From a bacterium (lineage in GTDB: Bacteria; UBP14; UBA6098), in the NCBI GenBank assembly GCA_003645085.1, contig QNEE01000001.1, positions 1,282-65,281 of the forward strand: DNA of 64,000 nt. The letters are read 5' to 3'. The translations under genes were made by a program, and so were the position numbers. The notes under the pieces were generated by a model that was not told the DNA's origin, did not search any database, and saw nothing but the letters and a program-made list of their open reading frames with translations. This document shows, piece after piece, positions 30,797 to 52,588 of this stretch (positions within the stretch are counted from its first letter, which is position 1; each line of letters opens with the position of its first letter).

Positions 30797-30832
30797 TCGA
30801 TAATACAACGTCGAACAAAACGGAGGTAAAAC

Positions 30833-31183
30833 TTGGCAGTTCGTATCAGACTCAGAAGACAGGGAAAGAAAAAACAACCGTTCTACAGAATTGTCGCGGC
30901 GGATTCCCGCTCTCCGCGCGATGGCCGTTTCCTGGAAATTATAGGGCACTATAATCCTCTTCCGGAAACCGAAGTAATAGAAGTAAAAAGAGACCGCCTG
31001 ATATACTGGTTGAAGGAAGGCGCTCAACCGACAGAAACTATAAAGAACTTACTTAAGCGAAAAGGTATCTGGGAAGATATTATAGCGGAGGTCAAACCAC
31101 CCAAAATTCGCAAAAAAACAGAAACCGAACCTCAAGAGGCCACCGGTGAGGATGTGACTGAAGCACCTGAACAGGAGGCCTGA
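30833..31183 (+). CDS. rpsP: 30S ribosomal protein S16, TTG start, with a ~35-aa charged C-terminal extension.
   Basis: (M)[49 protein letters not shown] 6 nt upstream of TTG. Confidence 0.9.
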
Positions 31184-31208
31184 ACTTACAGAAGGAGAAG
31201 TGGGTAAA

Positions 31209-31439
31209 ATGAAGGAATTCATCGAGACTATCGCGAGAGCTCTGGTCGATAACCCGGATGAGGTCGATGTCCGCGAGGTCTCCGGGGAGAAGACTATCGT
31301 CTACGAACTCCGCGTTAACGAGAGCGACCTCGGCAAGGTTATAGGACGCGGTGGCCAGACTGCTCGTTCTATTCGCACCCTGCTGAGCGCCGTATCAGCA
31401 AAAATGGGTAAACGCGCGGTTCTGGAGATAATCGAATAG
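31209..31439 (+). CDS. KH-domain RNA-binding protein (YlqC/UPF0109 family). The ORF track starts at GTG 31200; the ATG at 31209 is preferred because of RBS spacing.
   Basis: …[16 protein letters not shown]… KH motif. Conserved position between rpsP and trmD. Confidence 0.8.
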
Positions 31440-31441
31440 AA

Positions 31442-32176
31442 TTGCGAATAGCGGCGCTAACCCTTTTCCCGGGTCTTTTCGAGACCTACAAGAGTGAAGG
31501 GCTTTTCGATAGGGCGGTAAATGCCGGCCTCGTGGACCTGACCGCGGTAGATATACGGGATTTCACTCTCGATAAACACCGGACGGCCGACGATATACCC
31601 TACGGCGGCGGACCGGGGATGGTAATGAAACCCGAGCCTGTAGTCCGCGCTGTGGAATCTCTCGGCGAGGACTTCGCCGGTGCCCGGACAATTATAATGA
31701 GCCCGCGAGGGTCTTTATTCACTCAGTCCGATGCGGAGGAGTTAAGCTTATGTTCCTCTATGGTGCTTATCTGTGGCCGATACAAGGGTATCGACGAGAG
31801 GGTTGCCGAGATTATCGGAGCTACCGAAATATCTGTTGGAGATTATATACTCGGTGCTGGTGAAATCGCTGCGCTGGCTGTTATAGATTCTGTCGTCAGG
31901 TTGATTCCGGGTTACCTCGGGGATATAGAATCCGCAGAGTCGGATTCGCTCGGTGCCCCTAACAGGCTGCTTTCGGCGCCCGAATATACTCGACCGCGAG
32001 AGTTCAGGGGACTGGGAGTCCCCGAAGTATTATTATCCGGCAACCACGCAGCTATCGAGAAATGGAAAAGACGGGAATCGTTGAGGATAACGTTAGAACG
32101 ACGACCGGAAATTCTCGAAAAAGCCGACCTTAGCGATGAAGAACGTCGCTATTTAGAAGGTTTGAAAAAACAATAA
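31442..32176 (+). CDS. trmD: tRNA (guanine37-N1)-methyltransferase, TTG start.
   Basis: (M)RIAALTLFPGLFE..., SPOUT/TrmD signature. Starts immediately after the KH gene. rimM is absent between the KH gene and trmD. Confidence 0.9.
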   Translation: MRIAALTLFPGLFETYKSEGLFDRAVNAGLVDLTAVDIRDFTLDKHRTADDIPYGGGPGMVMKPEPVVRAVESLGEDFAGARTIIMSPRGSLFTQSDAEELSLCSSMVLICGRYKGIDERVAEIIGATEISVGDYILGAGEIAALAVIDSVVRLIPGYLGDIESAESDSLGAPNRLLSAPEYTRPREFRGLGVPEVLLSGNHAAIEKWKRRESLRITLERRPEILEKADLSDEERRYLEGLKKQ

Positions 32177-32229
32177 ACAGTTATATATACCGAATTACTT
32201 GCTATCAACGAAATGAGGAGGAGATAACG

Positions 32230-35200
32230 ATGAAACCGAGGTGCATTTTTATTCTGTTTTTCTTATCGGCTTTGTCCATCGTCGGGTCGGTTACGTTTTC
32301 TAATCTCGGCGAGGAGTTTTTCCTTTGCTATCCTGGTAACGCCTGTCGCGAAACCGGAGGTAACCCGGTTCCGTTTTACAACGGTCAGATAATCCTGACA
32401 TCGACAGTCGCGACTATCGGGACTGTCCAGACGCGCACAGGGAGTTTTCTGGAGGAATTTACGATTCCGGCTTACGGAACCGCTACTGTCAGTATCGACT
32501 CTACGTTATGGCTCAGAAACTCCGAATATGTTTATGACCGTGGATTATCGATACGGGCGGCGGATACTATCGCGGCTTATTTTCTGTCATACGAGGAGCC
32601 GGGAGCTACAAACGATATGACTTTACTATTTCCGGTTCAGAGCCTTGGACAAGAGTATCTCGTTATGTGTTGGCGGGACAATATACCAACCTCCGGTTAT
32701 TTCCCGCACATTTTGAACCACGGCCCGAGTATGTTTGCTATTGTGGCGCCGTTCGATGGGACGCATATAACAATTACACCCTCGGTAACCACAGAGGGCG
32801 GTCATGCTGCCGGCGTTCCGTTCGATATTACTCTCGACGCCTACGAGGCATATCAGGTTCTGGCGAATTCGCCTTCGATTAGCGACCTTTACGACCTTAC
32901 GGGTTCGGAGATATTAGCCGACAAACCTGTAGCGGTATTTGCTGGTAGCCAACTCGCGTTTGTCCCGGATACGATTTTTGCGGCGGACTATCTTATCGAA
33001 CAAATCCCGCCTTTGACGGCGTGGGGTAAGAATTTCAACGCTTTCCCAATCGAGGGCAGGAATTGTTGGGAAAAGGATGTTCTAAAGATACTCGCTTCAG
33101 AAGATGCTACAACGGTTAATCTGGAAGATGCAAGCGGCGACACGATTATTCACCTCGACCGTGGAGAGTATTTCGAATGGAATGGTTATCCGTGCGACCC
33201 GGGGAATTACGTTCCTCTCGGCGGTTACGCCGCGGACTGCGAGGGTAAATTAATGGACAGCCCGACACGTATCGAATCCGATAAACCTATTCTTGTAGGG
33301 CAATTTATTACTGGCGGTGTCCTGACGAAATGCAATCCCGGTATATCCGGCTCGGGAAGCACGCCCTATGGCGACCCGGCATATATGATGATTCCTCCGG
33401 CGGAGCAATACGGCAAGCGATACGTATTCCTTATTCCCCCCGGCTACACTAACGACTATCTGAATGTCGCGATAGAGGGTGGTTACGAGGGGACGGTTAC
33501 GTTGGACGGCGGTCCGCCGACCTTCAGCACGAGCTGGTTCGATATCCCTTCGACTTCTATGCGCGGGGCACGTATCGAGGTCGACCCCGGAAACCACGTG
33601 CTTTTGGCCGATACGACTATGCTCCTGCAGATTTACGCATTCGACGACTACTGGGCGTCATACGCTGCTGTCGGCGGTCAGAAAATAGCGATAATCAACG
33701 CGGCATACGAGATAGTTAAATTCTGCGAATTAACACCTGCAATAAGCGGCTATAATACGCGGTGGCGCATAGTGTTAAGGCAGGTTATCGGGACAGGTTC
33801 GCATTCTATTACTATAGGCGATACTCTCCCGCCGGACTTTACTTTAAGTTCGACGCCCGTCGATATACAGCTTTTCGGTTCCGCGACACGCGATTCCGTT
33901 CTCGAACCGGTTCCGGGGGATAGTATCCTCGTATGGGGCTGGTTCAGTATGGAGGCTGAAGACTCGATAGTCATTACGTTCGACGCCGACATTCTCATCG
34001 GTGTCGAGGGCAGATTCGACAACGGCGTCTGGATAGCGAACGAATATGGCCTAAAAGCGGATAACGCTTACGGCTTGATGGACAGTCTCGACGATGTAGT
34101 CGTAATTATGCCTCCGATGCCTATCGCTGACGCTGGACCGGACACCTTTACAATGGCCGGAACGAGTATAAATATCGGCGGAAGCCCGACCGCGAGCAGC
34201 GGCACACCGCCATATATAATCGAGTGGACGAGCGACCCTGTCGGTTTCACCAGCAGCGACGCCAACCCGCTGGTTTCGCCCGCGGGATTAACCGAATATA
34301 TCGTTTGTGTAACGGATTCATTCGGGTTCTTCGATTACGACTCCTGCATTGTCGATATCACTATGGAAGAGAGGCATATCGAGTTCGGGATTGCCGACGG
34401 TTATCCGTGCGACATTGTGTATATCCCGCTCTATATCGATAGTATTCACTACTGTAGTATCGATAGTGCATGGATGCGTTTCGCGGTGGACCCGGATATT
34501 CTTACTCCTACGAATATTATTGTCTCGGGAACGATGACGGACGCGTGGGCAGTCTCCGGATTGAATATCGACGCGACATCGGGAACTATCGAGGCCTGGA
34601 TTCACGGCCCGAGGCTCGCCGATTTACCGGGAGGGATTCTGCTTATGCTGGAGGCGAGTATCGATTGTGAGGCTATCGGCGGAACGAGCAGCCCGGTCGT
34701 GGTGGACAGTTTCTTTTTCAACGACGGCCAACCGGCGGTAACCTGGTCACCCGGAATGTGTTTCGTGCAGCTTACGCCGGCACGTTTTTCCTGTGATATC
34801 AGACTCAATCGAACATCGGGGGTTCCGACGGAAGACAATGTGTTCACTATCGGTGCTACACACGCCGCTACCGACGGTTACGACGCCGGTCTCGACTGGA
34901 TTCTCGTGCCCGCACCTGCAACGTTCGTTCAGGGATTGCTGGATATCGACGACACGTTAAATCCGCATATCGAGGCGCTTCGGAAAGATATGCGTGATGT
35001 TTCTCCGCCCAAAACATGGCTTCTTATAACCGAGGGCGAGTCGAACGGCGTTGCACGGTGGTCGCCGGCGAGCTTGCCTGAAGGAGTTTTCCGTATCGAC
35101 GGCCTTGTCGATATGAAACGTGATACGATGATTTATTTCGGCCTCGACGATACGCTCGTCATAGAGTGGCTTGTGCCGGAATTGGAATCGGCAGGATTGA

Positions 35201-36282
35201 CGCTCTATTCCGGCTGGAATATGGTCAGCAGCCCGGTTCATCCGGCCGAGATACCGGCTAACGAGATATTCCACACAGAGTTTGGTGTGTTCCGCTATCT
35301 CAGTTTGGCGTGTTGTTATGATTTCGCCGACCTTATTCAGCGGGGAGAGGGCTATTGGGTCTGGTGTCCGGCGGAAACGACTATCTATATAGCGGGTAGC
35401 GAGATAACCGGTTATCGCTGGTCGGTCTATCGTGGGTGGAACCTTATCGGCGCGCCAAAAGAATGCGTATCGACTGCGGATATCGATATTACGCCGTCCG
35501 GCGGGATTCTCGGCGATATATATCATTGGGACGGCTCGACCTACATCGCTGTCGATTCGCTTTGCCCGGGCAAAGGTTACTGGCTGTTGAGCAACAACGA
35601 GGGAATATTACACGTTCCGACGGGGTATCGCCGGAGACCGTCTCCCGTTCCGGAAACTGTCTGGGAAACGGCGTTGACGCTTAAATTCGGCGATTCGATA
35701 GAACGGCTTTCGATTGGTTACGCGCCGGACGCTGCTTCGGGTCTCGGTTACGGCGATATCGCGCTGCCACCGGTTCCGCCGAATTCGGATGGTTACCTAT
35801 GTGCGCTTGTCGCCGACGGCATCCAGCTTGAGAGAGACTTATCGCCGGACAATCGTTGGGAATTGAATAACACGGAACAATGTGATATGAGTTTGGATAT
35901 CCCGGACGATATGAATATTCTTGTCGACGGTATCGAGATTACAGATGGTGTTCCTGTTCCACTTTCTGTCGGACGGCATATAATAGTCGCGTTAGCGGAG
36001 CGTCCGGAGAAATTCGCGGTTCTCGGTTGCGTTCCTAATCCGTTTAACGCGCAGACGGATATTGTAGTTGCGATTCCCCATAATGGGGCTGTTTTCGTGG
36101 AGATGTTCGACCTTTCGGGGCGCTCGGTATGGAGTGCCGAAAGCGATTATCCCGCCGGTATTGTCCGAATACCCTGGAAGGGTGAAGACCACACCGGTGC
36201 CGGAGTTTCGACCGGCCTTTATCTTGCCCGCGTTACATTCGCGGACGAGTCGATTGTCGTGAAGGCGATGTTTATAAAATAA
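32230..36282 (+). CDS. Large (1350 aa) secreted cell-surface protein with PKD/Ig-like region and T9SS C-terminal domain.
   Basis: Signal peptide MKPRCIFILFFLSALSIVGS. Internal PKD-like segment (…PIADAGPDTFTMAGTSINIGGSPTASSGTPPYIIEWTSDP…). C-terminus …VPNPFNAQTDIVVAIPHNGAVFVEMFDLSGRSVW…GLYLARVTF…KAMFIK is a T9SS CTD. AGGAGG RBS. Confidence 0.75.
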   Translation: MKPRCIFILFFLSALSIVGSVTFSNLGEEFFLCYPGNACRETGGNPVPFYNGQIILTSTVATIGTVQTRTGSFLEEFTIPAYGTATVSIDSTLWLRNSEYVYDRGLSIRAADTIAAYFLSYEEPGATNDMTLLFPVQSLGQEYLVMCWRDNIPTSGYFPHILNHGPSMFAIVAPFDGTHITITPSVTTEGGHAAGVPFDITLDAYEAYQVLANSPSISDLYDLTGSEILADKPVAVFAGSQLAFVPDTIFAADYLIEQIPPLTAWGKNFNAFPIEGRNCWEKDVLKILASEDATTVNLEDASGDTIIHLDRGEYFEWNGYPCDPGNYVPLGGYAADCEGKLMDSPTRIESDKPILVGQFITGGVLTKCNPGISGSGSTPYGDPAYMMIPPAEQYGKRYVFLIPPGYTNDYLNVAIEGGYEGTVTLDGGPPTFSTSWFDIPSTSMRGARIEVDPGNHVLLADTTMLLQIYAFDDYWASYAAVGGQKIAIINAAYEIVKFCELTPAISGYNTRWRIVLRQVIGTGSHSITIGDTLPPDFTLSSTPVDIQLFGSATRDSVLEPVPGDSILVWGWFSMEAEDSIVITFDADILIGVEGRFDNGVWIANEYGLKADNAYGLMDSLDDVVVIMPPMPIADAGPDTFTMAGTSINIGGSPTASSGTPPYIIEWTSDPVGFTSSDANPLVSPAGLTEYIVCVTDSFGFFDYDSCIVDITMEERHIEFGIADGYPCDIVYIPLYIDSIHYCSIDSAWMRFAVDPDILTPTNIIVSGTMTDAWAVSGLNIDATSGTIEAWIHGPRLADLPGGILLMLEASIDCEAIGGTSSPVVVDSFFFNDGQPAVTWSPGMCFVQLTPARFSCDIRLNRTSGVPTEDNVFTIGATHAATDGYDAGLDWILVPAPATFVQGLLDIDDTLNPHIEALRKDMRDVSPPKTWLLITEGESNGVARWSPASLPEGVFRIDGLVDMKRDTMIYFGLDDTLVIEWLVPELESAGLTLYSGWNMVSSPVHPAEIPANEIFHTEFGVFRYLSLACCYDFADLIQRGEGYWVWCPAETTIYIAGSEITGYRWSVYRGWNLIGAPKECVSTADIDITPSGGILGDIYHWDGSTYIAVDSLCPGKGYWLLSNNEGILHVPTGYRRRPSPVPETVWETALTLKFGDSIERLSIGYAPDAASGLGYGDIALPPVPPNSDGYLCALVADGIQLERDLSPDNRWELNNTEQCDMSLDIPDDMNILVDGIEITDGVPVPLSVGRHIIVALAERPEKFAVLGCVPNPFNAQTDIVVAIPHNGAVFVEMFDLSGRSVWSAESDYPAGIVRIPWKGEDHTGAGVSTGLYLARVTFADESIVVKAMFIK

Positions 36283-36439
36283 GGGGATGCACCCGAAACT
36301 GCCCGGGGTGTGGGAGAAAAAAGGCGACCACACAGGGCCGTCTATTTTTCAATTAGTCGCGCGGCTCCGGCTACGCAACGCAATTGCGCGATAATCTAGT
36401 AGGTCGAGCGTATCGCTCGACTGCGCGTGATGCAGCCAC

Positions 36440-37788
36440 ACATAGTAAGACCCAATATTTACTAGGGCAATTAGAAATGGATGGGTCGATTACTTCCACA
36501 ACCATATCCTTGTCAAACTGTTTTCTTATGCATTGGTGTCTTCGCGAGGAGGTCATACAAGCGCTATCGAGAGAATCCGAGAAGACATAGAGCGATTAAA
36601 ACGAGAGCTCCAAAAATGATAACAAAACCAATTCAACGCAATCTTTTTGGTGAAGAACTCGTAATCGTTCCGGAAACGGAAGGCATTAAGTATGCAGGCT
36701 CGAAGCTCAAACTGATTCCTCATATCATTGAACTCGTCCGTGAGACGAATGCCAAAACCATCTTGGATGGATTTTCTGGAACTACTAGGGTGTCGCAAGC
36801 ACTGTCCCAGTTGGGTTATAGAATTATCGCGAATGATGTAGCAATATGGTCGAGGATTTTTAGTATTTGCTATTTGCTGAATAAACGCCCTAGAAGTTAC
36901 TACGAAAGCATTATTGCTCATTTAAATTCTTTATCTCCCAAGTATGGATGGTTCACGGAAAATTATGGAGGAGAACCAAACAACGGTTCTGCCTTACAGA
37001 AAGACGGTTTCAAAAAGCCCTGGCAAATACATAACACAATGAAATTAGATGCAATTCGTGAAGAAATTGAACGGATGGAATTAGACGAAATTACGAAAGC
37101 GGTCTTGTTAACGAGTCTTATCCTTGCTCTCGACTCCGTGGACAGCACAATTGGCCATTACTCCTCTTATTTAAGCAAATGGTCGCCGAGGTCTTACAAT
37201 CGAATGGTGTTGAGGGTGCCTAAAGTAATCGAGCAAAAGGAAGAGCATGTCGTCTTTCAGAATGATATATTTGAACTTCTTGATAAGATAGAAGCTGATA
37301 TAGCCTATTTTGACCCGCCCTATGGGTCAAATAATGAAAAAATGCCGCCATCGAGAGTAAGATACTCTTCGTATTATCATATTTGGACGACAATTATCCT
37401 GAATGACAGGCCGAAACTCTTTGGGAGGGCTAGGAGGAGGTGTGATACGTCCGACACTGTGGCAGCCTCTGTGTTTGAAGAGTTTAGGAGAAATCCTGCA
37501 ACTGGCAGATTTATTGCGGTAGAGGCGATAGAACGTATGATTACGCAAATTAAGGCAAAATACGTTATTTTATCTTATAGTTCGGGTGGACGAGCAACTG
37601 CAGAAGACCTACAAGATTCTATAAAAAAGGTCGGGAAATTACAGAAGGTTGTTGAAGTGAATTATCAGAAAAATGTGATGGCTTGTATGAAATGGACAAA
37701 TGAGTGGATACGGGAAGCAGAAAAACCTCATCGGGAGTTCTTATTTCTTATAGAAAAGTAATGTCTAACAAAGCCTTACGCCTAACTT
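36440..37788 (+). mobile_element. Low-GC genomic islet carrying an orphan Dam-like DNA methyltransferase (horizontally acquired; no integrase or transposase seen).
   Basis: Visibly AT-richer (~40% GC by eye) than the flanking ~58% GC genes. Bounded on the right by the 44-bp repeat copy A. Confidence 0.4.
36616..37761 (+). CDS. DNA adenine methyltransferase, alpha-class (Dam/D12-like), apparently orphan. Start assigned to ATG 36616; the ORF track starts at 36481.
   Basis: N-terminal Dam-like SAM-binding region (IKYAGSKLKLIP…ILDGFSGTTRVSQAL, compare Dam KWAGGK…FVGAGSV) and downstream catalytic motif FDPPYGS (DPPY). Confidence 0.75.
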   Translation: MITKPIQRNLFGEELVIVPETEGIKYAGSKLKLIPHIIELVRETNAKTILDGFSGTTRVSQALSQLGYRIIANDVAIWSRIFSICYLLNKRPRSYYESIIAHLNSLSPKYGWFTENYGGEPNNGSALQKDGFKKPWQIHNTMKLDAIREEIERMELDEITKAVLLTSLILALDSVDSTIGHYSSYLSKWSPRSYNRMVLRVPKVIEQKEEHVVFQNDIFELLDKIEADIAYFDPPYGSNNEKMPPSRVRYSSYYHIWTTIILNDRPKLFGRARRRCDTSDTVAASVFEEFRRNPATGRFIAVEAIERMITQIKAKYVILSYSSGGRATAEDLQDSIKKVGKLQKVVEVNYQKNVMACMKWTNEWIREAEKPHREFLFLIEK

Positions 37789-37832
37789 CTATTCCGCCGG
37801 CGCTTTATAGCGGCAGGTGAGCTTAGTCGTTG
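37789..37832 (+). repeat. 44-bp repeat copy A (ctattccgccggcgctttatagcggcaggtgagcttagtcgttg), 27 bp downstream of the Dam-like MTase stop.
   Basis: 40/44 identical to the reverse complement of 47068-47111. Confidence 0.8.
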
Positions 37833-37866
37833 TGTAACGAGAATAAGGCAAAAAACCGAGATAACT

Positions 37867-38628
37867 ATGAAATGTAAAATGCTGGTATTACCACTAATCA
37901 TTACCCTTGTATCGGCCTATAATGCGATGGTTTTCGCCGAGTCGCTCGATGCCGAGAGCATAGTCCGCAAGGTAGACAAGCTATACCGCCATGAATCGAG
38001 CTACGCTAAGATGGAAATGCAGATAACGACACCGCACTGGGAACGGACGCTCGAGATGGAGGCCTGGAGCGAAGGTTTGGACAAAACCTTCATCGTAATA
38101 AACTCCCCTGCGAAGGAAAAAGGCACCGCGACGCTCCGTATCGGCAACGAGATGTGGAATTACCTGCCGAAAACAGACAAGACTATGAAAATCCCGCCTT
38201 CGATGATGATGAGTTCGTGGATGGGCTCTGATTTTAATAACGACGACCTCGTTAAAGAATCCTCGATGTTCGAGGACTACACATACGAGTTTTTCACGCC
38301 GGATGTGGTCGAGGATAGCATCATCTACCTCGTGCTAATCCCGAAAGAGAACACACCGATTGTATGGGGCAAAATCGAGCTGGCCGTCCGCGAAAGCGAT
38401 TATCTCCCTGTCTGGCAGAAATTCTACGACGAGAAGGGCGACCTGATGCGCGTTATGAATTTTAAAGAGATAAAACAACTAGGCGGCAAAACAATCCCGA
38501 CCGTAATGGAGCTTATTCCTAAAAATAAGGAAGGCCACATAACGGTGATAAGATACCTCGATGCGAAATTCGATATAAAACTCGACGACGATACATTTAC
38601 CCTTAGAAACCTACAGAAAAAGAGGTGA
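37867..38628 (+). CDS. LolA-like outer-membrane lipoprotein-sorting protein family member (partner of the FtsX-type permease).
   Basis: Signal peptide. ~250 aa. Conserved adjacency to a MacB/FtsX-like permease gene. Sequence features of the LolA_like/DUF4292-type beta-half-barrel family (inferred, not a strong motif match). Confidence 0.55.
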   Translation: MKCKMLVLPLIITLVSAYNAMVFAESLDAESIVRKVDKLYRHESSYAKMEMQITTPHWERTLEMEAWSEGLDKTFIVINSPAKEKGTATLRIGNEMWNYLPKTDKTMKIPPSMMMSSWMGSDFNNDDLVKESSMFEDYTYEFFTPDVVEDSIIYLVLIPKENTPIVWGKIELAVRESDYLPVWQKFYDEKGDLMRVMNFKEIKQLGGKTIPTVMELIPKNKEGHITVIRYLDAKFDIKLDDDTFTLRNLQKKR

Positions 38629-38742
38629 TAAATTAATCGCCCCCACATCCTGCTGGGAATTGCATGGAAAAGGGCTGGCACGTGGGTCGGCACGCGCCGA
38701 CGGGCGGATGGTTTTTGCGCCCGGAATATAATGTTCCTAAAT

Positions 38743-38780
38743 CCTACCGGGCATAGCAAAAACCGTGACAGCCCGGTAGG
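38743..38780. repeat. Perfect 10-bp-stem inverted repeat (cctaccgggc…gcccggtagg, 18-nt loop) in the 203-bp spacer between the LolA-like and permease genes.
   Basis: Seen directly in the sequence. No T-run follows on the + strand, so it is not a canonical terminator. It could be an attenuator or a REP-like element. Confidence 0.5.
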
Positions 38781-38831
38781 AAACGCGCAAATAAAACTTA
38801 TACTTAATTTATACTTGTAACCATCAGAAAG

Positions 38832-40046
38832 ATGCTACTAAAAATAGCGTTCAGAAATATCCTCCGCCAGAAGCGCAGAAGCTTCTTCACAATCCTTTCG
38901 ATTGCCGTCGGGTTCGCGTTCGCCTCGATAATGATAGCCTGGCGAATGGGCTCGTTCAATCTGGTTATCGACAAATTCACCCGCGCGTATCTCGGGCATA
39001 TCCAGATACACGCCGACGATTACCTCGATAAACCCTCGCTCTATAAAAATATCTCGGACTATAAATCTCTCGGCGAAAAAATAATGTCCGTCGAAGGCGT
39101 CGAATCGTTGGCACCGAGGATGCTCGCCGCCGGTCTCGGCACTGTTGGCGAAAAAAGCACCGCAATCCAGATTACTGGCATCGACCCCGCGCTCGAAAAC
39201 AACGCCACAGGTTTCCAGAATAAAATCGAAAGCGGCGAAAACCTACCCGAAAAACCGTCGCATAAGGTAATTCTCGGCAAGGGCCTGATGCAAAACCTCG
39301 ACGCTGAAATCGGCGACGAGTTCGTTGTTGTGTCGCAGGCAGCCGATGGCTCGATAGCGAACGACATGTATGAAATCATCGGCGTCGTGGTAACTGGCAA
39401 CGAATACTCCGACCAAATCGGTGTATATATGCATCTTGCCGACGCGCAGGAGCTTATGGTTCTCGAAAACCGAATCCACGAAATCGTAGTCATCACAAAT
39501 GATATCCGCAAGGTCGATAAATACGCCGCGCGAATCGAAGAAAAACTCGCCAATCCCGCGCTCGAAATCCTCCCGTGGAAAAAGGTCAACGAGTCGTTCT
39601 ATAAGATGATAAAGGCCAAAGAGCAGGCACAGTCCATTATGCACATTGTCATTATGATAATCGTCGCAATCGGCGTGCTGAACACGGTGCTGATGTCCGT
39701 GTTGGAGCGAATCCGCGAATTCGGCGTGCTGAAAGCGGTCGGCACACGGGCCTCGCAGATTTTCAGGATGATTATCACCGAGGCCTTTATCCTTTGCCTC
39801 GTCGGAATCTTAATCGGTATCGCAATCGGCCTAGCGGTGAACTATCCGATGTCGCTGCACGGGATTAAAGTTTTCGATTCGATGGACATCGGCGGAGTTC
39901 AATTCGACACGCTGAAAAGCGAGGTCAACGCGAGAAGCATATACGAGCCCGCGATAATCGTGTTCTTGACCTCACTTATAGTCAGCATATACCCAGCACT
40001 CAAAGCGGCAAGAACCCGCCCGGCAAAAGCGATGCGTTTCCATTAG
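38832..40046 (+). CDS. ABC transporter permease, MacB/LolCE FtsX-domain type.
   Basis: MLLKIAFRNILRQKRRSFFTILSIAVGFAF N-terminal TM, large periplasmic domain, and three C-terminal TM helices with the FtsX signature (…LERIREFGVLKAVG…). No ATPase gene is adjacent. Confidence 0.85.
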   Translation: MLLKIAFRNILRQKRRSFFTILSIAVGFAFASIMIAWRMGSFNLVIDKFTRAYLGHIQIHADDYLDKPSLYKNISDYKSLGEKIMSVEGVESLAPRMLAAGLGTVGEKSTAIQITGIDPALENNATGFQNKIESGENLPEKPSHKVILGKGLMQNLDAEIGDEFVVVSQAADGSIANDMYEIIGVVVTGNEYSDQIGVYMHLADAQELMVLENRIHEIVVITNDIRKVDKYAARIEEKLANPALEILPWKKVNESFYKMIKAKEQAQSIMHIVIMIIVAIGVLNTVLMSVLERIREFGVLKAVGTRASQIFRMIITEAFILCLVGILIGIAIGLAVNYPMSLHGIKVFDSMDIGGVQFDTLKSEVNARSIYEPAIIVFLTSLIVSIYPALKAARTRPAKAMRFH

Positions 40047-40320
40047 GTAAAATGGTTTCACACTGGGAAAGGCGGACTACAGACCCACCGCTAAGCGATA
40101 TCAATCGACATCGGCTTGTCCTCATCGCTCTCCGCGCCATCGAATTAGCCCGGCATATTCGTAAGTTATTAAATAACAATGAAATATCCATTTCCACCCC
40201 GTAGCGGTTCGACGATAGCAAACCCGTCACGATGCCTCGGTCGCGGAAACTACGCCCTTACGGTTCGTTTCGCATTTGCATTTGTAGGGGTCGTTCGTGA
40301 GCGCCTCGGACGACTCTCTG

Positions 40321-40848
40321 CTACTTCAATCTTTCCAGCGGAACTGCGCATACCGATTTCCGGGCGCAACCTGCGCACATATCGCCGCACCAGATAAGCT
40401 CGAACAGCGAATCGACGCGGTCGATTATTATGTGGTTGTCGGTGATAATCCCGGCCTCGAAATTGCGCCGATTTTTCGATTTAGCGCCTATACCCGCACC
40501 GGTCAGGTTCGCCGAGCCGAGATAAAGCAGTCTGCCATCGGCGAGAATCGTTTTTTGGTGAACTCGCGGGCAGCGGCGCATCGAGAAATTGTTAATCGAC
40601 GCGAGTTTCGCGGTTTTTGCCTTTTTAAGGAACCATTCTGAGGGCACTCCCGAATGCAGGATTCGGACCGCGAGGCCGTTTTTCGCACGCCTTGCGAGGT
40701 AATCGACTATCGATTCGCCGCGTTTGCCGTGCAGGATTGTCAACGCTTTAACGGTTGCGGTGGCGATATCGAGGCGGCTTTTCGCGCCGGCGATTAAACG
40801 TTCGACAACTTCCGTATAGTGGCCGGCGTTTTCGACGAACTCGAGCAT
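40321..40848 (-). CDS. Phospholipase D superfamily single-HKD protein (Nuc-like endonuclease family candidate).
   Basis: HxKx4Dx6GSxN motif: HQKTILADGRLLYLGSANLT. 175 aa. No signal peptide. C-terminal Cys cluster CGDMCAGCARKSVC. Confidence 0.65.
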   Translation of the reverse strand: MLEFVENAGHYTEVVERLIAGAKSRLDIATATVKALTILHGKRGESIVDYLARRAKNGLAVRILHSGVPSEWFLKKAKTAKLASINNFSMRRCPRVHQKTILADGRLLYLGSANLTGAGIGAKSKNRRNFEAGIITDNHIIIDRVDSLFELIWCGDMCAGCARKSVCAVPLERLK

Positions 40849-41325
40849 TCAGTCGACTAAATAGAAGGTCGCGTTTTCGGTCTCGACCGGCGGCGACGAC
40901 AGAAGGAAGGCTTTAGCCTCGTATTTACCGAGAAAAATCCCTTTTTCAGAAATGCTCGTGCAATCCCAGACTGCGCGGAAACGTGCGGTATCGCCGGGTG
41001 CCAGCGTCGTGTGGGAAATAGTCTGTGCGCAGGCGATACCCTCGAGAGAATTCCAGATAGGATGGTCGTCCCGACTAACAACGAATCTCGATTTACAGGC
41101 GGTTGGAAATGTCAGTTCGATTGTTTTTTCAGAAAGGGAGGTGACGGTCATCAAAAACTCGATTTCGGAGCCGAGGACGTAAGCGGAATCGGATAGTATC
41201 AGGCTCGCGGCGATTTTGCGGTTTTCCGATTGCGCATTGTTGGCGGTTTTCGGTTTTTTCGAGGCGCAGGACATAAACAGCGCCGCTATTACTATGGTGG
41301 TCGAGATATTTTTCGCTATCTGCAT
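40849..41325 (-). CDS. Lipoprotein with BsuPI-like (intracellular proteinase inhibitor fold) beta-sandwich domain; hypothetical.
   Basis: Signal peptide plus lipobox (ALFMSC). Segment SEKTIELTFPTACKSRFVVSRDDHPIWNS…TLAPGDTARF resembles the BsuPI family pattern. Abuts the PLD gene with no gap. Confidence 0.45.
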   Translation of the reverse strand: MQIAKNISTTIVIAALFMSCASKKPKTANNAQSENRKIAASLILSDSAYVLGSEIEFLMTVTSLSEKTIELTFPTACKSRFVVSRDDHPIWNSLEGIACAQTISHTTLAPGDTARFRAVWDCTSISEKGIFLGKYEAKAFLLSSPPVETENATFYLVD

Positions 41326-41354
41326 TTTACGAGAATCACCTGTATAGATGGGAC

Positions 41355-41807
41355 TTACGACTCGTTTTTCTTGAGAGTATCGATAAAATCGCCGGCGTTT
41401 TTCGATTTGAGAATCTCCTCGCGCGTGACAGGATTGTTCAGGATTCTCGAAAGTTCTGATAGGATATGAACGTGGTCGCCCGAGCCGTTTTTGGGAGATA
41501 TCAGCAAGAAGAAAATCCGCGCCGGTTTGCCATCGACAGAATCGAACTCGATACCATCAGGAGAGAGCCCCGCGACCATTTTCGGCGAACTGATATCGTC
41601 CATCTTGGCATGCGGGATAGCGATACCGTAACCGACGCCTGTGCTCAGTATCTCCTCGCGTTCGAGAACGGCCGCGAGGATTTCATTTTTGATACGAAGG
41701 TTGTAGACCTCGCAGAGCAAATCCACAAGTTCGGTAATAACCGATGGTTTGTTTTCGGATTCGAGCGGTATTTTAACGCCCCTTCGGGGCAAGTAATTGG
41801 TAAACAT
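41355..41807 (-). CDS. ptsN: PTS EIIA-Ntr (nitrogen regulatory IIA).
   Basis: …ILSTGVGYGIAIPHAKMD… PTS_EIIA_2 active-site His region. 150 aa. Confidence 0.85.
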   Translation of the reverse strand: MFTNYLPRRGVKIPLESENKPSVITELVDLLCEVYNLRIKNEILAAVLEREEILSTGVGYGIAIPHAKMDDISSPKMVAGLSPDGIEFDSVDGKPARIFFLLISPKNGSGDHVHILSELSRILNNPVTREEILKSKNAGDFIDTLKKNES

Positions 41808-41979
41808 CCTTTTCCTTCGCTATAGAAATTTCAGGCAGCTAAATTACCTACGGAGTCTAGGAATGTCAAGATTTTCTTTCCTCTTTATGTAATATTAATA
41901 AAACCGATTTCGGGGAATTATTTAGATTTTCCAGATATACCGTTGACTTTGAGTTATAATTTCCGTATTTTTCCAAGAA

Positions 41980-42420
41980 ATGGAAGACAGAATGCTCGAC
42001 ATTGTGGTAATTCTCGCCGAGAGGTTCCGTCGGGACCGGAAGCTTTTCTCGAATCCGAAAAGTATCCGGGACGAGCTTATAGAAAGAGGATATATGCCGG
42101 AGGATATCGACCGAGCGATTCAATGGGCATCGAATAGCCTCGAATACCCGGTCGGCAATTCTACCAGGATTCTATCCGCTTACGAACGCTCGCAGTTTAC
42201 TTCCGACGGTTGCGGATTGCTCCTTAAGCTCAGAAATCTGGGGCTTTTGAACGACGAGCACCTGGAGCTTATTATCGCCAGGTCCATATTGATGGACGAA
42301 GGCCCGATTGACGCCGAGGGTATTCGCTCGATGGCTATGATTTTCCTTTTCGATTTGAAGAATCACGAGAGCGGATTTCCTATCTATCTTGATTCCGGCG
42401 GCGGCGACATCGAGAACTGA
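41980..42420 (+). CDS. smg: Smg family protein (DUF494).
   Basis: LDIVVILAERF…DELIERGYMPEDIDRAIQW matches the Smg N-terminal pattern (VLMYLFE…AGFEREDIYNALLWL). Confidence 0.7.
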   Translation: MEDRMLDIVVILAERFRRDRKLFSNPKSIRDELIERGYMPEDIDRAIQWASNSLEYPVGNSTRILSAYERSQFTSDGCGLLLKLRNLGLLNDEHLELIIARSILMDEGPIDAEGIRSMAMIFLFDLKNHESGFPIYLDSGGGDIEN

Positions 42421-42444
42421 CCGGTCAATAACCAGTGGGATAAT

Positions 42445-43224
42445 ATGTATAGAAGGTATAGATGGAGTATGGACGGATACGGCAGGACTCCTGTCGGCAA
42501 GGGCGTAATCGGTCTAATTGTCGCATCCGGGATTTGTTTTTTGATGCAAATGGCTTCTCGGCACCTTATCGACGTTTTCGTCCTCGACCCGTCGAGAGCG
42601 CTGCCGGAACTCAAGCTTTACCAATTGGTTACCTATATGTTCCTTCACGGCGGCTTCTTTCACCTTTTTATTAATCTATTCGTCCTGTATATGTTTGGTC
42701 GGGAACTCGAAGGTTTATGGGGAACCAGCAGGTTCTTATTCTACTATTTTGTCAGCGGCATCGGCGCGGGTCTTGTTACCGCACTACTTTCGCGCTATCC
42801 GGTTGTCGGTGCAAGCGGAGCCATTTATGGATTACTTTTGGCTTACGGCGTCCTGTTCCCGAACCGGACAATTTTACTCTGGTTTTTCATCCCGATGAAA
42901 GCGAAATATCTGGTAATTCTATTCGCGGTTCTGGAGTTTTTCGCGAGTATGGGTGGTGGGGGCGACGGTATCTCGCATATTACTCACCTTGGCGGTATGG
43001 TTTTCGGCGGAGCATTGCTCGCTATCTGGCATCTCGGGGGGACACTCAAGAGAAAACGCAGGATGTCCGTTATTCACGACCTAACCGGCGGACCCGCAAG
43101 CCCCGCGAATGTCGACCGTATTCTGGACAAGGTTTTGCGCGAGGGCGTCGAATCGCTGACCGAGGACGAAAAACGAATACTTATCCGAGCGGGAAAATTC
43201 TACCAGCGGGATACGCGCAACTAA
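42445..43224 (+). CDS. Rhomboid-family intramembrane serine protease.
   Basis: GASGAIYGLL (catalytic Ser), HLGGMVFG (catalytic His), multiple TM helices. Confidence 0.85.
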   Translation: MYRRYRWSMDGYGRTPVGKGVIGLIVASGICFLMQMASRHLIDVFVLDPSRALPELKLYQLVTYMFLHGGFFHLFINLFVLYMFGRELEGLWGTSRFLFYYFVSGIGAGLVTALLSRYPVVGASGAIYGLLLAYGVLFPNRTILLWFFIPMKAKYLVILFAVLEFFASMGGGGDGISHITHLGGMVFGGALLAIWHLGGTLKRKRRMSVIHDLTGGPASPANVDRILDKVLREGVESLTEDEKRILIRAGKFYQRDTRN

Positions 43225-43228
43225 CCAG

Positions 43229-44341
43229 ATGAAAAGCGACGTCCTCTATCTCCCACAACGTGGCCAACATAGCGAAATGGCGGCCTCTCTCGGCGAATTA
43301 CTTAAAAATATCGAACTACCCTGGGCGAAAAAGAAATCCCGCATCGGAATAAAACTACATTGGGGCGAACCCGGCAATAAGACCTTCCTCCCGCCGGATT
43401 ACGCACGCGCAGTCGCCGGGGATATACTACGCCGTGGCGCGAAACCTTTTATTTTCGATACTACAACCCTATATCGCGGCGAACGAAAAAACGCGATAGA
43501 TTCGCTTTGGGTCGCGCATAAGCACGGTTTCGATTACGGCACCACCGGCGCGCCGGTTCTTGTCGCGGACGGCGTCTCTAAGAGGGATACGATAGTAATC
43601 CCTGTTCCCGGAAATCCAATCCACCAGAAAACGGTGAAGGTTGCTTCACTTGTGGATTATATCGACGGGATAATCACGCTATCGCATTTTAAGGGGCATA
43701 TAGCTTCGGGTTTCGGCGGCGTAATCAAAAACATCTCGATGGGTTTCGCATCGAGCGCGACCAAACAGGTGATGCACGGCGATGTGAAGCCGGAACTCGA
43801 GCCGGAGAAATGCGATTTATGCGGGACCTGCGCTGAATTCTGTCCGGAAGGCGCGATAACTTTAAGCGATAAACTCCCGATAATAGACCTCGATGCCTGT
43901 ATCGGTTGCGGCGAATGTATCGCTATGTGTCCGACCTGTGCGTTGCGAATTCAGTGGAATGCGAGACCGCAGGCGTTTGTCGAAAAACTCGCCGAGACCG
44001 CCGCCGCAGTCTGCGAACGTACGAGTGGGCGAATGTTGCATATAATAGTGCTGGCGAATATAACCCGCGAATGCGACTGTATGCCCAAAAAGATGGAGCC
44101 GTTAGTTCCCAACCTCGGGGTATTGGTTGGTGCCGACCCGATAGCGCTCGACAGCGCGGCCTGCGACCTTTTTAACGGCGCGAAACCGTTTCCCGGCTCG
44201 GGTATTATGTTGGGCGCGGAAGATAAGCTCGAAGTCCTTTTCCCGGAAATCCCCTATCGCCGCCAGCTCGAATACGGTGTGGAATTGGGGATGGGTTCGG
44301 TGGAATATAATTTAATAAGAATTGGGAATAGGCGTGAATAG
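43229..44341 (+). CDS. DUF362 domain protein with two 4Fe-4S ferredoxin motifs.
   Basis: Two cysteine clusters: CDLCGTCAEFCP and CIGCGECIAMCP. DUF362-type N-terminal region. Confidence 0.75.
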   Translation: MKSDVLYLPQRGQHSEMAASLGELLKNIELPWAKKKSRIGIKLHWGEPGNKTFLPPDYARAVAGDILRRGAKPFIFDTTTLYRGERKNAIDSLWVAHKHGFDYGTTGAPVLVADGVSKRDTIVIPVPGNPIHQKTVKVASLVDYIDGIITLSHFKGHIASGFGGVIKNISMGFASSATKQVMHGDVKPELEPEKCDLCGTCAEFCPEGAITLSDKLPIIDLDACIGCGECIAMCPTCALRIQWNARPQAFVEKLAETAAAVCERTSGRMLHIIVLANITRECDCMPKKMEPLVPNLGVLVGADPIALDSAACDLFNGAKPFPGSGIMLGAEDKLEVLFPEIPYRRQLEYGVELGMGSVEYNLIRIGNRRE

Positions 44342-44365
44342 CGGGGTTTTCCCCGTGCTTTTCTC
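44342..44365 (+). terminator. Rho-independent terminator after the DUF362 gene.
   Basis: cggggttttccccg hairpin followed by tgcttttctcc. Confidence 0.6.
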
Positions 44366-44634
44366 CTCGTAAAAAGGGCTTCCTAAAGCGGAAGATGTTG
44401 CTTCTAAAATACTTTTCCGAGATTTCAAATTTCACCCCCTAAAAACTATATTGGACATACTAAAACCCGCCGGCCGTGGCGTTTTATGCTGTGAGTAGTG
44501 CGCCGGGAGTTGTGAGTCCCGCGCCACACTCTCCGCTCTTTGCTATTTTATATAGAGACATTCGTGCTTTTTTACCGTCTTTGTATCCTTCGCGTTAGAG
44601 AGCTATCTCGCTGCATAGGATACAGAATATCGTC

Positions 44635-45996
44635 TCAATCGAGTTTTTCCCTACGAAAAATCCGCGCCACTTTCCGCCACATACGTGCAACCGCACCGAC
44701 GGTTTTGAAATGGCTCGACCAGATTGTGCGATAAAGCGTCCCGCCGCCGATAGCGACCATCACGAAATTCGGTAACCACATAGCCAGCCAGGGTGCGATA
44801 AAACCGCGGTCGGCGAGTTCCTCACCTCCTATTAAAAACGCCCAGTAGATTACGATAAAACCGAGACCGAGGCCGATGCCGACGCCGAGACCACCTTTGC
44901 GCGCCCAAACCCCCACCGGTGCGCCTACCAACAAGAAGAAAACGCATGCGAAAGGTAATGTTATCTTTTTATGGATTTCGACGCTATATTTGCGAATATA
45001 ACGACGGTGTGCTTTGACTGTATTCATCTGGCTTTTTATTGCGTGGAGTGTCGATTCGACACGTTTTCGAATCGAGCGGTATATCATAGACGGGTCGGAC
45101 GGAGTGTTTTTTCCGGACGGGATAAACGCGGCGCGAAAGGCTTTGTCCGAAAACTCCACGATATTATCCATCGAGCGCGCGATTGCTGAATCTTTCGCGG
45201 CGATTCTCTCTTTCATATCCTCGATTGTGAGTTCGCGGTCGCCGCGATGGCCGCTGTCGCGTCTCTGGAGCTTAAAGCCCAGGTCGCTGAACCGGATGGT
45301 CTGCCTGTCGAAATTTACCCGTGTGTGTTTGCTGGGGTCCTGCTCGTCGATTTCGTGGATAACGCCGTCGTAAAGCTCGAGAATCAGCACATCGCTATTT
45401 TCGGAATAACTCATCTTGCCATATTCGGCCTGCACGATTCTCGGGATACGGCGGTCCTGCTGGTCGTAAATAGTTATTCCCCGGAGTTCGTTCGTTTTCT
45501 CTTCGACTTCTTCGATATAGAGGCCGACGCCCGGGAAATCGTCGATAAAAACCCTTTCTTTAATCGCGAGCGCCGGTTTTTTTCGTTTAATATCCCCCAT
45601 CAGCATCTTTGCCTCGTAGTTGGCTTCAGGGAGAACGGAATTAGAAAAGAAAATCATAAAAACGGATAGGATAAGCGCGACCCCGAGCGGAAGAAACATC
45701 AGGCGAACGAGCGGTATTCCCGAGCTGACCGCGGCGATAATCTCGCGGTCTTCGGCGAGCCTCCCAAAGGCCATCAATCCGGCGATTAGGCAGGTCATCG
45801 GCACCGCGAGAGCGAGCATCCACGCGAGGTTTAACGAAAATAATTTCAAAACGATAAGCGGTTCTACACCTTTGGCGATAATCAGGTTCAGAATATCGAG
45901 GATAAAGTCCATAACCAGAACGAACATAATTATCGCCAACCCGCCGATAAACGGCATCAGGTGCTCGCGAAGGATGTATTTAGAGAGTATTTTCAC
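44635..45996 (-). CDS. LPS export ABC transporter permease LptF/LptG (YjgP/YjgQ family).
   Basis: MKILSKYILREHLMPFIGGLAIIMFVLV…; six-TM topology with a periplasmic insert. Confidence 0.85.
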   Translation of the reverse strand: MKILSKYILREHLMPFIGGLAIIMFVLVMDFILDILNLIIAKGVEPLIVLKLFSLNLAWMLALAVPMTCLIAGLMAFGRLAEDREIIAAVSSGIPLVRLMFLPLGVALILSVFMIFFSNSVLPEANYEAKMLMGDIKRKKPALAIKERVFIDDFPGVGLYIEEVEEKTNELRGITIYDQQDRRIPRIVQAEYGKMSYSENSDVLILELYDGVIHEIDEQDPSKHTRVNFDRQTIRFSDLGFKLQRRDSGHRGDRELTIEDMKERIAAKDSAIARSMDNIVEFSDKAFRAAFIPSGKNTPSDPSMIYRSIRKRVESTLHAIKSQMNTVKAHRRYIRKYSVEIHKKITLPFACVFFLLVGAPVGVWARKGGLGVGIGLGLGFIVIYWAFLIGGEELADRGFIAPWLAMWLPNFVMVAIGGGTLYRTIWSSHFKTVGAVARMWRKVARIFRREKLD

Positions 45997-46023
45997 CAGA
46001 ATGAGGGCAGTTACGTTCGGTTC

Positions 46024-46656
46024 CTAAGTGCATAATTCTTTGACGCCGCTAAACGTTTTGCGATGTATCGGGCAGGGGCCGAGGGTTCTGATAGCTTCTT
46101 TATGCTTCCGGGTCGGATAGCCGGAATTTTGAGAAAAGCCGTAACCCGGGTAGTGAGTATCGAAATATGTCATCAGGTTATCTCGCGAAACCTTCGCCAC
46201 AATACTAGCCGCCGATATCGCAAGGTGCTTGCCATCCCCGCCGATTATGGTTTTTTGAGGGATTTTCGTAAATGGAATCCGCCGATTGCCGTCGATTAAA
46301 AGCATCTGCGGTTTCGTTTCGAGCGAGGATGCCGCTCGCGCCATAGCGAGAAGCGAGGCGTTCAAGATGTTGATTCTGTCGATTTCGGACGGTGTTACCC
46401 ACCCTACAGAAACGGCCACGGCTTTCGTTAGTATATAATCGAAAAGCTCCCGCCTTAATTTATTATGCAGGAGCTTCGAGTCGTTTATATATTCGGGGAC
46501 TTCCTTATAATCCCATATAACCGCGGCGGCCACTACGGGGCCCGCGAGCGGTCCGCGTCCCGCTTCATCCACCCCGGCGAATCTATAACCTTTGCGAAGA
46601 AGCTCTTTTTCCAGGTTAGAAAAGCCAACGCCGATTAGCCTCCGTGGTGAAGCCAT
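46024..46656 (-). CDS. rnhB: Ribonuclease HII.
   Basis: GVDEAGRGPLAGPVVAAAV motif. Directly downstream of rplS. Confidence 0.9.
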   Translation of the reverse strand: MASPRRLIGVGFSNLEKELLRKGYRFAGVDEAGRGPLAGPVVAAAVIWDYKEVPEYINDSKLLHNKLRRELFDYILTKAVAVSVGWVTPSEIDRINILNASLLAMARAASSLETKPQMLLIDGNRRIPFTKIPQKTIIGGDGKHLAISAASIVAKVSRDNLMTYFDTHYPGYGFSQNSGYPTRKHKEAIRTLGPCPIHRKTFSGVKELCT

Positions 46657-46657
46657 C

Positions 46658-47011
46658 TCACTTTTTTGCTCTCTTTTCTTTAACTTTAGCGGCCTTGCCC
46701 TTTTTCTTGCGGAGATAATATAGTTTAGCTCTACGGACCTTACCGTGCTTAATAATCTCTATTTTCGTAACGTTAGGCGAATGGATAGGAAAAACTCTTT
46801 CGACACCGACTCCGCCGGAGACCTTGCGAACGGTCATCGTCTCGGTCGAGCCGCTGCCTTTCCGGCTGAGGACTATCCCCTGAAAAGCTTGGACACGTTC
46901 CTTGTCCCCTTCTTTAATGCGAACATGGACCTTAACCGTGTCGCCCGGACCAAACTCGGGCAATTCCTTAATTTGCGATGCGGTTACGTTTCTGATTATT
47001 GCGTCGGACAT
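46658..47011 (-). CDS. rplS: 50S ribosomal protein L19.
   Basis: [52 protein letters not shown]…. Confidence 0.95.
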
Positions 47012-47067
47012 TTTAATCTCCTCCTCCTATGATAAAAGCCTACTTTTCTTTATTCTAGATTTTATTC

Positions 47068-47111
47068 CAACGTCTAAGCTCACCTGCCGTTATAGAGCGC
47101 CAGCGGAATAG
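47068..47111 (-). repeat. 44-bp repeat copy B (caacgtctaagctcacctgccgttatagagcgccagcggaatag), the inverted copy of A. It lies 20 bp downstream of the beta-class MTase stop codon on the minus strand.
   Basis: 40/44 identical to the reverse complement of 37789-37832. Same position and orientation relative to its MTase as copy A. Confidence 0.8.
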
Positions 47112-47130
47112 CAGTCAGGTGGGGCGTTTA

Positions 47131-48174: not shown

Positions 48175-48185
48175 TATTTAAGAAC

Positions 48186-48977: not shown

Positions 48978-49114
48978 TTGTTTTTACACACAATTCTTTA
49001 TATTTAACATTATCGGTAAATTCCTGCTAAATGTCAAGTCCGAGTAGAGAATTTTAATAGTATATTTCTGACCGTTTTTAAAGGGGGTATTTTCGCTTTC
49101 ATTATTTGGACTTA

Positions 49115-52450: not shown

Positions 52451-52588
52451 TTAAAGAAATAAATACATCATACATAATACTACGTAATCTCAGGCATAAG
52501 GTCAAATCAATTCGTTCTCTTGCCCAGATTTTTTAGTCCGCCGTTTTATATGAAACAGACTTGAATATCTAGATTTAATTTGTATTTT

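Follow-up and report, generated by a model that had tools for sequence, protein, structure and literature searches.

A 64,000-nucleotide (nt) stretch of contig QNEE01000001.1 (assembly GCA_003645085.1, positions 1,282 to 65,281 of the forward strand), from a bacterium of the UBP14 lineage and called the window below, carries two copies of a short repeat in inverted orientation, close to where a conserved ribosomal-protein gene block has been broken between trmD and rplS. Sequence comparison indicates that the repeats are probably the attC sites of two integron cassettes that were inserted separately, one bearing a Dam methyltransferase gene and the other a two-gene restriction-modification (R-M) system, next to an unrelated inversion. 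The break between trmD and rplS is probably a rearrangement independent of the cassettes and older than they are.

The inverted pair itself, reported by the initial annotation as 44 bp long, is real. Its arms (37781-37832 and 47068-47119) are 52 nt long, complementary at 46 of 52 positions (88%) and 9235 nt apart, and the similarity extends into GAATAA if an 8-nt indel is allowed. The longest perfectly identical run between the two is 16 nt. No other inverted pair in the window comes close, the next ones having 27-35 nt at 74-81%. Each repeat lies directly 3' of the stop codon of a DNA methyltransferase (MTase) gene, is co-oriented with that gene, and ends a low-GC islet, with a GC content of 0.33 at 47-49 kb and ~0.40 at 36.5-37.8 kb, against ~0.50 elsewhere in the window. 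The first site, attC_A (37763-37835, + strand), begins 2 nt after the Dam stop codon and has an R'' box GTCTAAC (37763-37769) and an R' box GTTGTGT (37829-37835). The second, attC_B (47065-47136, - strand), has a degenerate R'' box ACATAAT that overlaps the MTase stop codon, its AAC changed to AAT, and an R' box GTTGGAA (47071-47065). A covariance model built from ten copies of the repeat family scores them at 78.2 and 86.5 bits, respectively. The left arm of attC_A has decayed, its bottom strand folding with a z-score of +0.29, and the bottom strand of attC_B also folds poorly (z -0.15). With mutated left arms, both copies are probably decaying and frozen in place.

The lack of a significant fold at first spoke against a hairpin element, and it was the wider family of the repeat in metagenomes that then revealed the attC hairpin; the window copies, whose own folds do not rise above shuffles, are taken as attC because they are members of this family. 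A metagenome scan with the 20-base core of the repeat as pattern, over a collection that was not exhaustive, returned eight contigs with unrelated flanks, and in all eight about 50 further bases beyond the search pattern are conserved. Contigs of the window's own species from the Joint Genome Institute (JGI) were not returned by this core scan. The family ends in an inverse core, xxCTAAC, at the 5' side and a core, GTTAGxx or GTTRRRY, at the 3' side, and of the ten copies, 8 have AAC and 9 have GTT. The cores enclose a 20-nt loop flanked by the arms of an imperfect palindrome, GCTC(C)ACCTG(A)CCGC ... GCGGCAGGTGAGC. When the bottom strands of loci L108, L110, L111 and L112 are folded as single-stranded DNA, they give z-scores of -2.9 to -5.6 and form a stem of R boxes, a spacer without pairing, a second stem of 13 bp with a single bulged T and G, and the 20-nt loop. 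The proposed structure has 84% of cells paired; displacing the partners by 1-3 columns lowers this to 26-52%. These are the hairpin features described for attC sites, together with attG sites, in PMC12614218, and attC recognition proceeds via extrahelical bases and the GTTRRRY motif (PMC10127599).

The family also has the layout of cassettes. The covariance model finds direct-orientation arrays of four sites in L109 and of two each in L110, L111, L112 and L119. As in the window, the sites of L109 and L110 lie immediately 3' of co-oriented open reading frames (ORFs), and the array sites of L109, L110 and L112 separate small ORFs and defence genes. In the window, a covariance search with filters off finds only the two sites, 9.2 kb apart on opposite strands, and no third attC, for example after the large gene that follows trmD. 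On sequence grounds, then, the repeats show the testable defining features of integron attC sites, and the cassettes fit the definition of a single attC lacking integron integrase (SALIN), an IntegronFinder term (10.1101/2022.09.11.507474).

Several other features of these loci can be recorded here. One complete cassette, at L110:582-3145, lies between two attC sites of the same family and encodes an N6_N4 methylase and a TdeIII endonuclease, a type II R-M system different from that of the window; its first bases (TTATGTGTAAAAATAAATGGAGA) resemble the start of the R-M cassette in the window (TTGTGTGTAAAAACAAATGGAGA). In L111, an IS200-like Y1 transposase with a helix-turn-helix tail sits between two attC-like matches (L111:5217-5987), at a locus that otherwise looks chromosomal (ArgJ, FAD oxidase). 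A scan of viral contigs with a 16-mer gave five matches, four of which are coincidences in coding sequences and one of which (L119) is a related attC-like site. L119 is an IMG/VR contig classed as viral, with attC-like sites at 1727-1801 and 2240-2339 that have a shorter loop.

The R-M cassette occupies 47071-48993 on the - strand (1923 nt, GC ~0.33) and consists of a Tsp45I-family restriction endonuclease gene (48186-48977, -) and an N6_N4 DNA methylase gene (47131-48174, -), whose GC content at third codon positions (GC3) is 0.18-0.25. Its boundaries are given by two contigs from other samples, L004 and L005, which encode an identical L19 protein, have flanks 98.9-99.2% identical to the window, and pass directly from the C25 peptidase gene to rplS-rnhB without the R-M genes and attC_B. 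The empty site reads ...AAAGAG|TTGGAAT..., within the spacer ...GATAATGTTAAATATAACGGCAAATATAAAGAG|TTGGAATCTAGAATAAAG..., and the cassette in the window ends ...CTTAGACG|TTGGAAT, with a right junction of ...GAGCTTAGACG|TTGGAATAAAATCTAGAATAAAG... and a left junction of ...GATAATGTTAAATATAAAGAA|TTGTGTGTAAAAAC... The cassette thus sits at G|TT, as expected for recombination between an attC and a genomic site with the target 5'-GWT-3', which is the genomic target consensus given for SALINs together with reports of excision of genome-inserted cassettes (10.1101/2022.09.11.507474). The strains that bear the cassette are 99.6-100% identical to the window and those without it ~99%, a pattern that, judged from the assemblies, fits gain of the cassette within a sub-lineage.

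The R-M cassette begins 16 nt downstream of the -10 hexamer of a sigma-70-like promoter site (49009-49037, -; TTGACA-17-GATAAT, 11 of 12 consensus matches), the same sequence being present in the empty-site strains. Inserted cassettes are reported to be expressed when they land near a resident promoter (10.1101/2022.09.11.507474), and the site at 49037-49009 would now drive a Tsp45I-MTase-rplS-rnhB unit. As envisaged, an integrase encoded elsewhere would have recombined the folded bottom strand of the attC of a circular cassette with a double-stranded genomic 5'-G|TT-3', and replication would then have resolved the junction; the promoterless R-M genes would be transcribed from the resident promoter, with rplS-rnhB now downstream of them. 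In some populations the cassette seems to be in decay: an AAG-to-TAG change in samples 3300013103 and ERZ27227322 (L006:1-360 and L008) places an in-frame stop in the cassette MTase gene at window ~47240 (-), at which the gene caller ends a 73-amino-acid (aa) MTase fragment.

The Dam cassette (~36471-37829, +) ends at the G of a G|TT at 37829 and carries a D12-class N6-adenine MTase gene (ORF 36616-37761 or 36481-37761, +). GC content falls from ~0.55 to ~0.40 at 36.45-36.5 kb, on its left side. No promoter-like site scoring above 9/12 was found before Dam in the 6-kb region scanned, and look-ups of the exact proteins returned neither an empty site nor an array copy for Dam, both Dam and the R-M MTase being found only in the window's own context.

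Several points weigh against this account of the cassettes. Neither window copy, folded alone, has significant structure, and their bottom strands do no better than shuffles. Covariation in the family does not exceed that of column shuffles, the search pattern having fixed the right arm. Neither the window nor the covered parts of the metagenome loci yielded an integron integrase or an attI. For the Dam cassette, the left end is placed at A|TTAGAA (~36470/36471) by inference only. Finally, L004 and L005 could be excision scars or hold an old attC remnant instead of being naive sites: the empty site shares ATAACGGCA with attC_B (L004:2238-2264; window 47080-47090, -), attC_B being the only family member with an A there where the others have G, and it differs from the window by a 12-nt indel, a G-to-A change at the crossover base and a 5-nt indel, far denser than the ~1% background.

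The second half of the argument concerns the gene order into which the cassettes were set. The retained half of the conserved block (29471-32176, +) comprises ffh (29471-30796), rpsP (30833-31183), a KhpA-type KH protein gene (31200-31439) and trmD (31442-32176), and the displaced half (-) comprises rplS (46658-47011) and rnhB (46024-46656) with lptFG, the LptF/G gene lying at 44635-45996. Pfam confirms the genes on which the initial annotation had based its split of rpsP-KH-trmD on the + strand from rplS-rnhB on the - strand, and ~14.5 kb lie between them. An independent 16.8-kb JGI contig (L010/L001), 99.76% identical, runs from KH to the MTase in the same order, so misassembly is ruled out for the window gene order.

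It had also been stated that trmD and rplS are generally adjacent in bacteria, and this holds broadly: rplS lies at most ~1.5 kb downstream on the same strand in ~60 of 80 trmD loci from many phyla, usually with rnhB next. The best match to the trmD query in that genome collection is only 55% identical, which makes this search useful for general gene order and not for close relatives. Relatives of the lineage were found by BLASTP (trmD 62-73% and rplS 73-82% identical, set apart from all other database matches) and by tblastn (loci L096-L107; rplS 72-80%, trmD 66-73%), the best named rplS match for the host being a Zixibacteria metagenome-assembled genome (MAG) at 71%. In every lineage relative sampled (L096-L107), ffh-rpsP-KH-trmD-rplS-rnhB is collinear with a trmD-rplS spacing of 37-92 nt, and lptFG comes next wherever the contig reaches that far. 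The comparison of gene order that the initial annotation proposed has thus been made, and the split is absent from every one of these relatives. Since they all keep the block collinear, the separation into ffh-rpsP-KH-trmD (+) and rplS-rnhB-lptFG (-) is, by this comparison, derived and specific to the window's species.

The absence of rimM, which had been noted as part of the broken synteny, is correct as far as the gap between KH and trmD goes (2 nt, 31439-31442). It is not part of the rearrangement, because the collinear relatives also lack rimM there; the absence holds in every lineage relative examined (L096-L105) and is lineage-wide. Moreover, tblastn with six RimM queries detected no RimM-like sequence in the 64-kb window or within ±10 kb at the relatives' loci.

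A single inversion, as the initial annotation supposed, is compatible with these data: one such event would leave rplS inverted and at the far end of the displaced block, which is where it stands. The most economical version spans ~32.2-47.0 kb, because it yields the window order, with the cassettes removed, without further events. Its breakpoints would lie in the trmD-rplS spacer and in the spacer between the C25 peptidase gene and the gene now following trmD, called cargo here, which encodes a 1350-aa IgGFc_binding-domain protein with a weak Ig-like C-terminal match, a putative cargo of the type IX secretion system (T9SS) (32230-36282, +). The ancestral order would have been trmD(+) | rplS rnhB lptFG ... 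ftsX(-) LolA(-) cargo(-) | C25(-). The trmD-rplS spacer reconstructed in this way is ~53-57 nt, inside the range of the relatives. The proposed left breakpoint is the present trmD-cargo spacer (32177-32229, +), which has GTT directly after the trmD stop and GAGGAGGAGAT at the cargo ribosome-binding site, and the C25 peptidase gene, with a Por_Secre_tail (T9SS tail; 49115-52450, -), flanks the right one.

Only two copies of the 11-mer GAGGAGGAGAT exist in the 64-kb window (chance mean 0.03), at 32215-32225 (+) and 47016-47026 (-), and they are mutually inverted. Each lies 4 nt upstream of a start codon, that of cargo and that of rplS, respectively, which are the genes at the proposed breakpoints; the rplS-side copy is also present in the cassette-less strain L004, and no other gene examined in the region has as strong a Shine-Dalgarno sequence. 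The exchange may therefore be pictured as having used an 11-nt inverted microhomology that now serves as the ribosome-binding site of both genes. On the other side of the balance, the pair could be just two unusually strong Shine-Dalgarno sequences. For the putative ancestral adjacency of C25 and cargo, relatives offer no comparison, as within 10 kb they have no other gene in common with the segment, and an ancestral neighbour for LolA-FtsX was not recovered either: homologues 60-70% identical occur across many phyla, and none lies on the contigs of the lineage relatives. GC skew, both in bulk and at four-fold sites, follows the coding strand and holds no replication signal by which to date or delimit the inversion. 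The order of events, the exact breakpoints and any involvement of an integrase are put forward as inferences.

Of the other explanations, the one that survives best, although it is unlikely, is that an integron integrase made the inversion off target, between two genomic secondary sites in inverted orientation, the G|TT that follows the trmD stop and, upstream of rplS, G|TTGGAAT, a hot site reused later by the cassette. Both proposed junctions have a GTT, on opposite strands, the rplS-side site is competent for the integrase in that a cassette has inserted there, and there is a precedent on a plasmid (PMC10127599). Set against this, GTT is expected by chance (>50%) in spacers of such length, no integrase is known in this genome, and the 11-mer microhomology offers an alternative breakpoint ~45 nt away. 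It is equally doubtful that the integrase, or breaks that it made, caused the ~15-kb inversion as well and that the R-M cassette, having captured the promoter feeding rplS-rnhB, has been stabilised by its position. If this were true, loss or silencing of the transcription unit of the R-M cassette would be tied to ribosomal-protein expression.

Less probable still is the proposal of the initial annotation that the repeats are themselves the breakpoints, the 37.8-47.1 kb segment having been inverted, or being reversibly invertible, by homologous recombination or by an integrase acting between inverted attC/R' boxes. It is true that the repeats exist, are inverted and enclose a segment that has rplS at one end; the empty site has a 9-mer in common with attC_B; and integron integrases can invert between inverted GTTRRRY-like sites (PMC10127599). 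Against this, the junction from C25 to rplS already exists without attC_B in L004 and L005, which are more divergent (~1%, versus at most 0.4% for the cassette-bearing strains); this is essentially the result that the annotation itself had named as refuting its model. Inverting the segment back does make rplS-rnhB collinear with trmD, as had been predicted, but it leaves 5.6 kb between them, made up of cargo and Dam, and so does not restore the 37-92 nt of the relatives. The 5.6 kb include a gene of native composition without an attC: cargo has a GC3 of 0.60, like its neighbours, and since it looks native and no attC follows it, the model needs an extra, unexplained insertion of ~4 kb. In addition, the repeats share no identical stretch longer than 16 nt, each attC copy has a decayed structure, and no recombinase is present in the window. 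An identity of 16 nt is below what efficient RecA-dependent exchange normally needs.

A reversibly invertible segment, in particular, finds no support. A Pfam scan of the window ORFs detected no tyrosine or serine recombinase, and the roughly twelve contigs that span a junction, taken from at least six samples, all have the window's orientation, none having the alternative junction, although these are consensus assemblies, which show the majority form, and a minority orientation could escape. Several public assemblies end inside rnhB at window ~46512-46520 (tails of L009 and L002). A structural polymorphism at ~46.51 kb was considered and rejected: NODE_603 (ERZ1742239) ends in the Nextera adapter CTGTCTCTTATACACATCT... 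and is hence an artefact, and the end of NODE_3192 is 40 nt of a different rnhB allele, a chimeric tail and not a variant.

Two further readings would give the repeat another identity. That it is a repetitive extragenic palindromic (REP) or miniature inverted-repeat transposable element (MITE)-like sequence, or the hairpin end of an IS200/IS605 insertion sequence (IS) moved by a Y1 transposase, is very improbable. A ~70-nt hairpin-forming element found in many contexts, with such a transposase between two matches in one locus (L111), would suit it. The transposase occurs in only one of nine loci, however, and the sites always lie 3' of co-oriented ORFs, in direct arrays. They have RYYYAAC/GTTRRRY ends, a G|TT junction and a bulged T and G in the hairpin, and the mobile unit is one or more genes with one site and not a pair of sites. 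A role of the repeat in cis regulation, as a leader, terminator or small RNA shared by the LolA-like gene and rplS and placed upstream of each, scarcely deserves credit: both copies do precede the next gene by 35-57 nt and have its orientation, but there is no Rfam match even at E <= 10, the window copies have no significant fold, rplS functions without the repeat in L004 and L005, and family members precede unrelated genes.

The rest of the window adds the setting. Gene calls were checked by Pfam, proteins RKZ31977.1 and RKZ31990.1 being those of the host MAG. The body of the displaced segment, from the LolA_like gene to LptF/G (37867-45996), has genes on both strands: LolA_like (37867-38628, +), an FtsX/MacB permease (38832-40046, +), and, within the same interval, PLD, BsuPI and PTS-EIIA2 genes (-) and DUF494, rhomboid and DUF362/Fer4 genes (+). 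The four-fold GC3 of the LolA-like to lptFG genes is 0.57-0.74, most being at least 0.63, and that of most genes on either side is lower, at 0.52-0.62. Beyond the C25 peptidase gene lies mnmG (52580-54457, +). A giant ORF of 5158 aa (6925-22401, -), in which a repeat scan finds several direct-repeat families, D1-D4, at a spacing of ~588 nt, is probably a repetitive surface or adhesin-type protein. The window has no tRNAs, and hence no tRNA-type att site, and Rfam gave no relevant match, either over the whole window at the gathering threshold or around both repeats at E <= 10. A resemblance of ATAATGTTAAAT, near the insertion point, to a dif/Xer site was judged by eye and rejected, the XerC arm being absent.

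The closest known counterparts of the window cassettes are the SALINs inserted at attG sites that Loot et al. describe (preprint 10.1101/2022.09.11.507474; later Nat Microbiol 2024 according to PMC12614218). Common to both are a single attC 3' of one or more promoterless genes with integrase and attI absent nearby, and a minimal G|TT (5'-GWT-3') as insertion site, a short way downstream of a resident promoter; the R-M cassette of the window is likewise present or absent between near-identical strains. The window differs in that its host is an uncultured bacterium, its cargo is a complete two-gene R-M system plus an orphan Dam, and both attC sites are partly decayed, and in that the R-M insertion has a promoter on one side and an essential ribosomal-protein gene on the other, with dependence on an integrase being putative here. 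With sedentary chromosomal integron arrays and clusters of attC sites lacking integrases (CALINs), for example the Vibrio cholerae repeats (VCRs) of Vibrio, the family shares attC sites that are highly similar and form arrays in L109, L110 and L112. In contrast to these, the window has two sites on opposite strands, and neither an array nor intI was seen in its 64 kb.

The inversion may likewise be set beside known cases. As in the off-target integrase inversions of Souque et al. 2023 (PMC10127599), inverted GTT sites stand at the edges of an inverted segment of 10-15 kb, in a genome that an integron integrase has evidently visited. That case was tied experimentally to an active IntI1 on a plasmid, whereas the link in the window is positional and its attC sites are not both at breakpoints. 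As in inversions by homologous recombination between insertion sequences or rRNA repeats, inverted repeats flank part of the displaced, inverted segment; unlike those, the window repeats are 52 nt long and 88% identical and match perfectly over no more than 16 nt, strains with the derived order lack one of them, and re-inversion between them does not restore the ancestral adjacency. The features of a repeat-mediated inversion (repeats at both breakpoints, re-inversion restoring adjacency) are thus not found here, nor are those of an invertible segment of the invertase or shufflon type (an adjacent recombinase, both orientations).

Cassette insertion belongs to a known class of events, and the inversion is a commonplace rearrangement, specific to the lineage, that affects a conserved ribosomal operon. 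A practical consequence for annotation is that short inverted repeats beside methylase islets should be checked as attC sites before they are called inversion substrates. The attC family is common to many metagenome contigs and one IMG/VR viral contig. The window offers a case from nature, polymorphic in populations, in which integron cassettes came to lie outside an integron, at a minimal G|TT downstream of a promoter, and it fits and extends recent experimental work on insertion at attG sites and on integrons as stores of defence genes.

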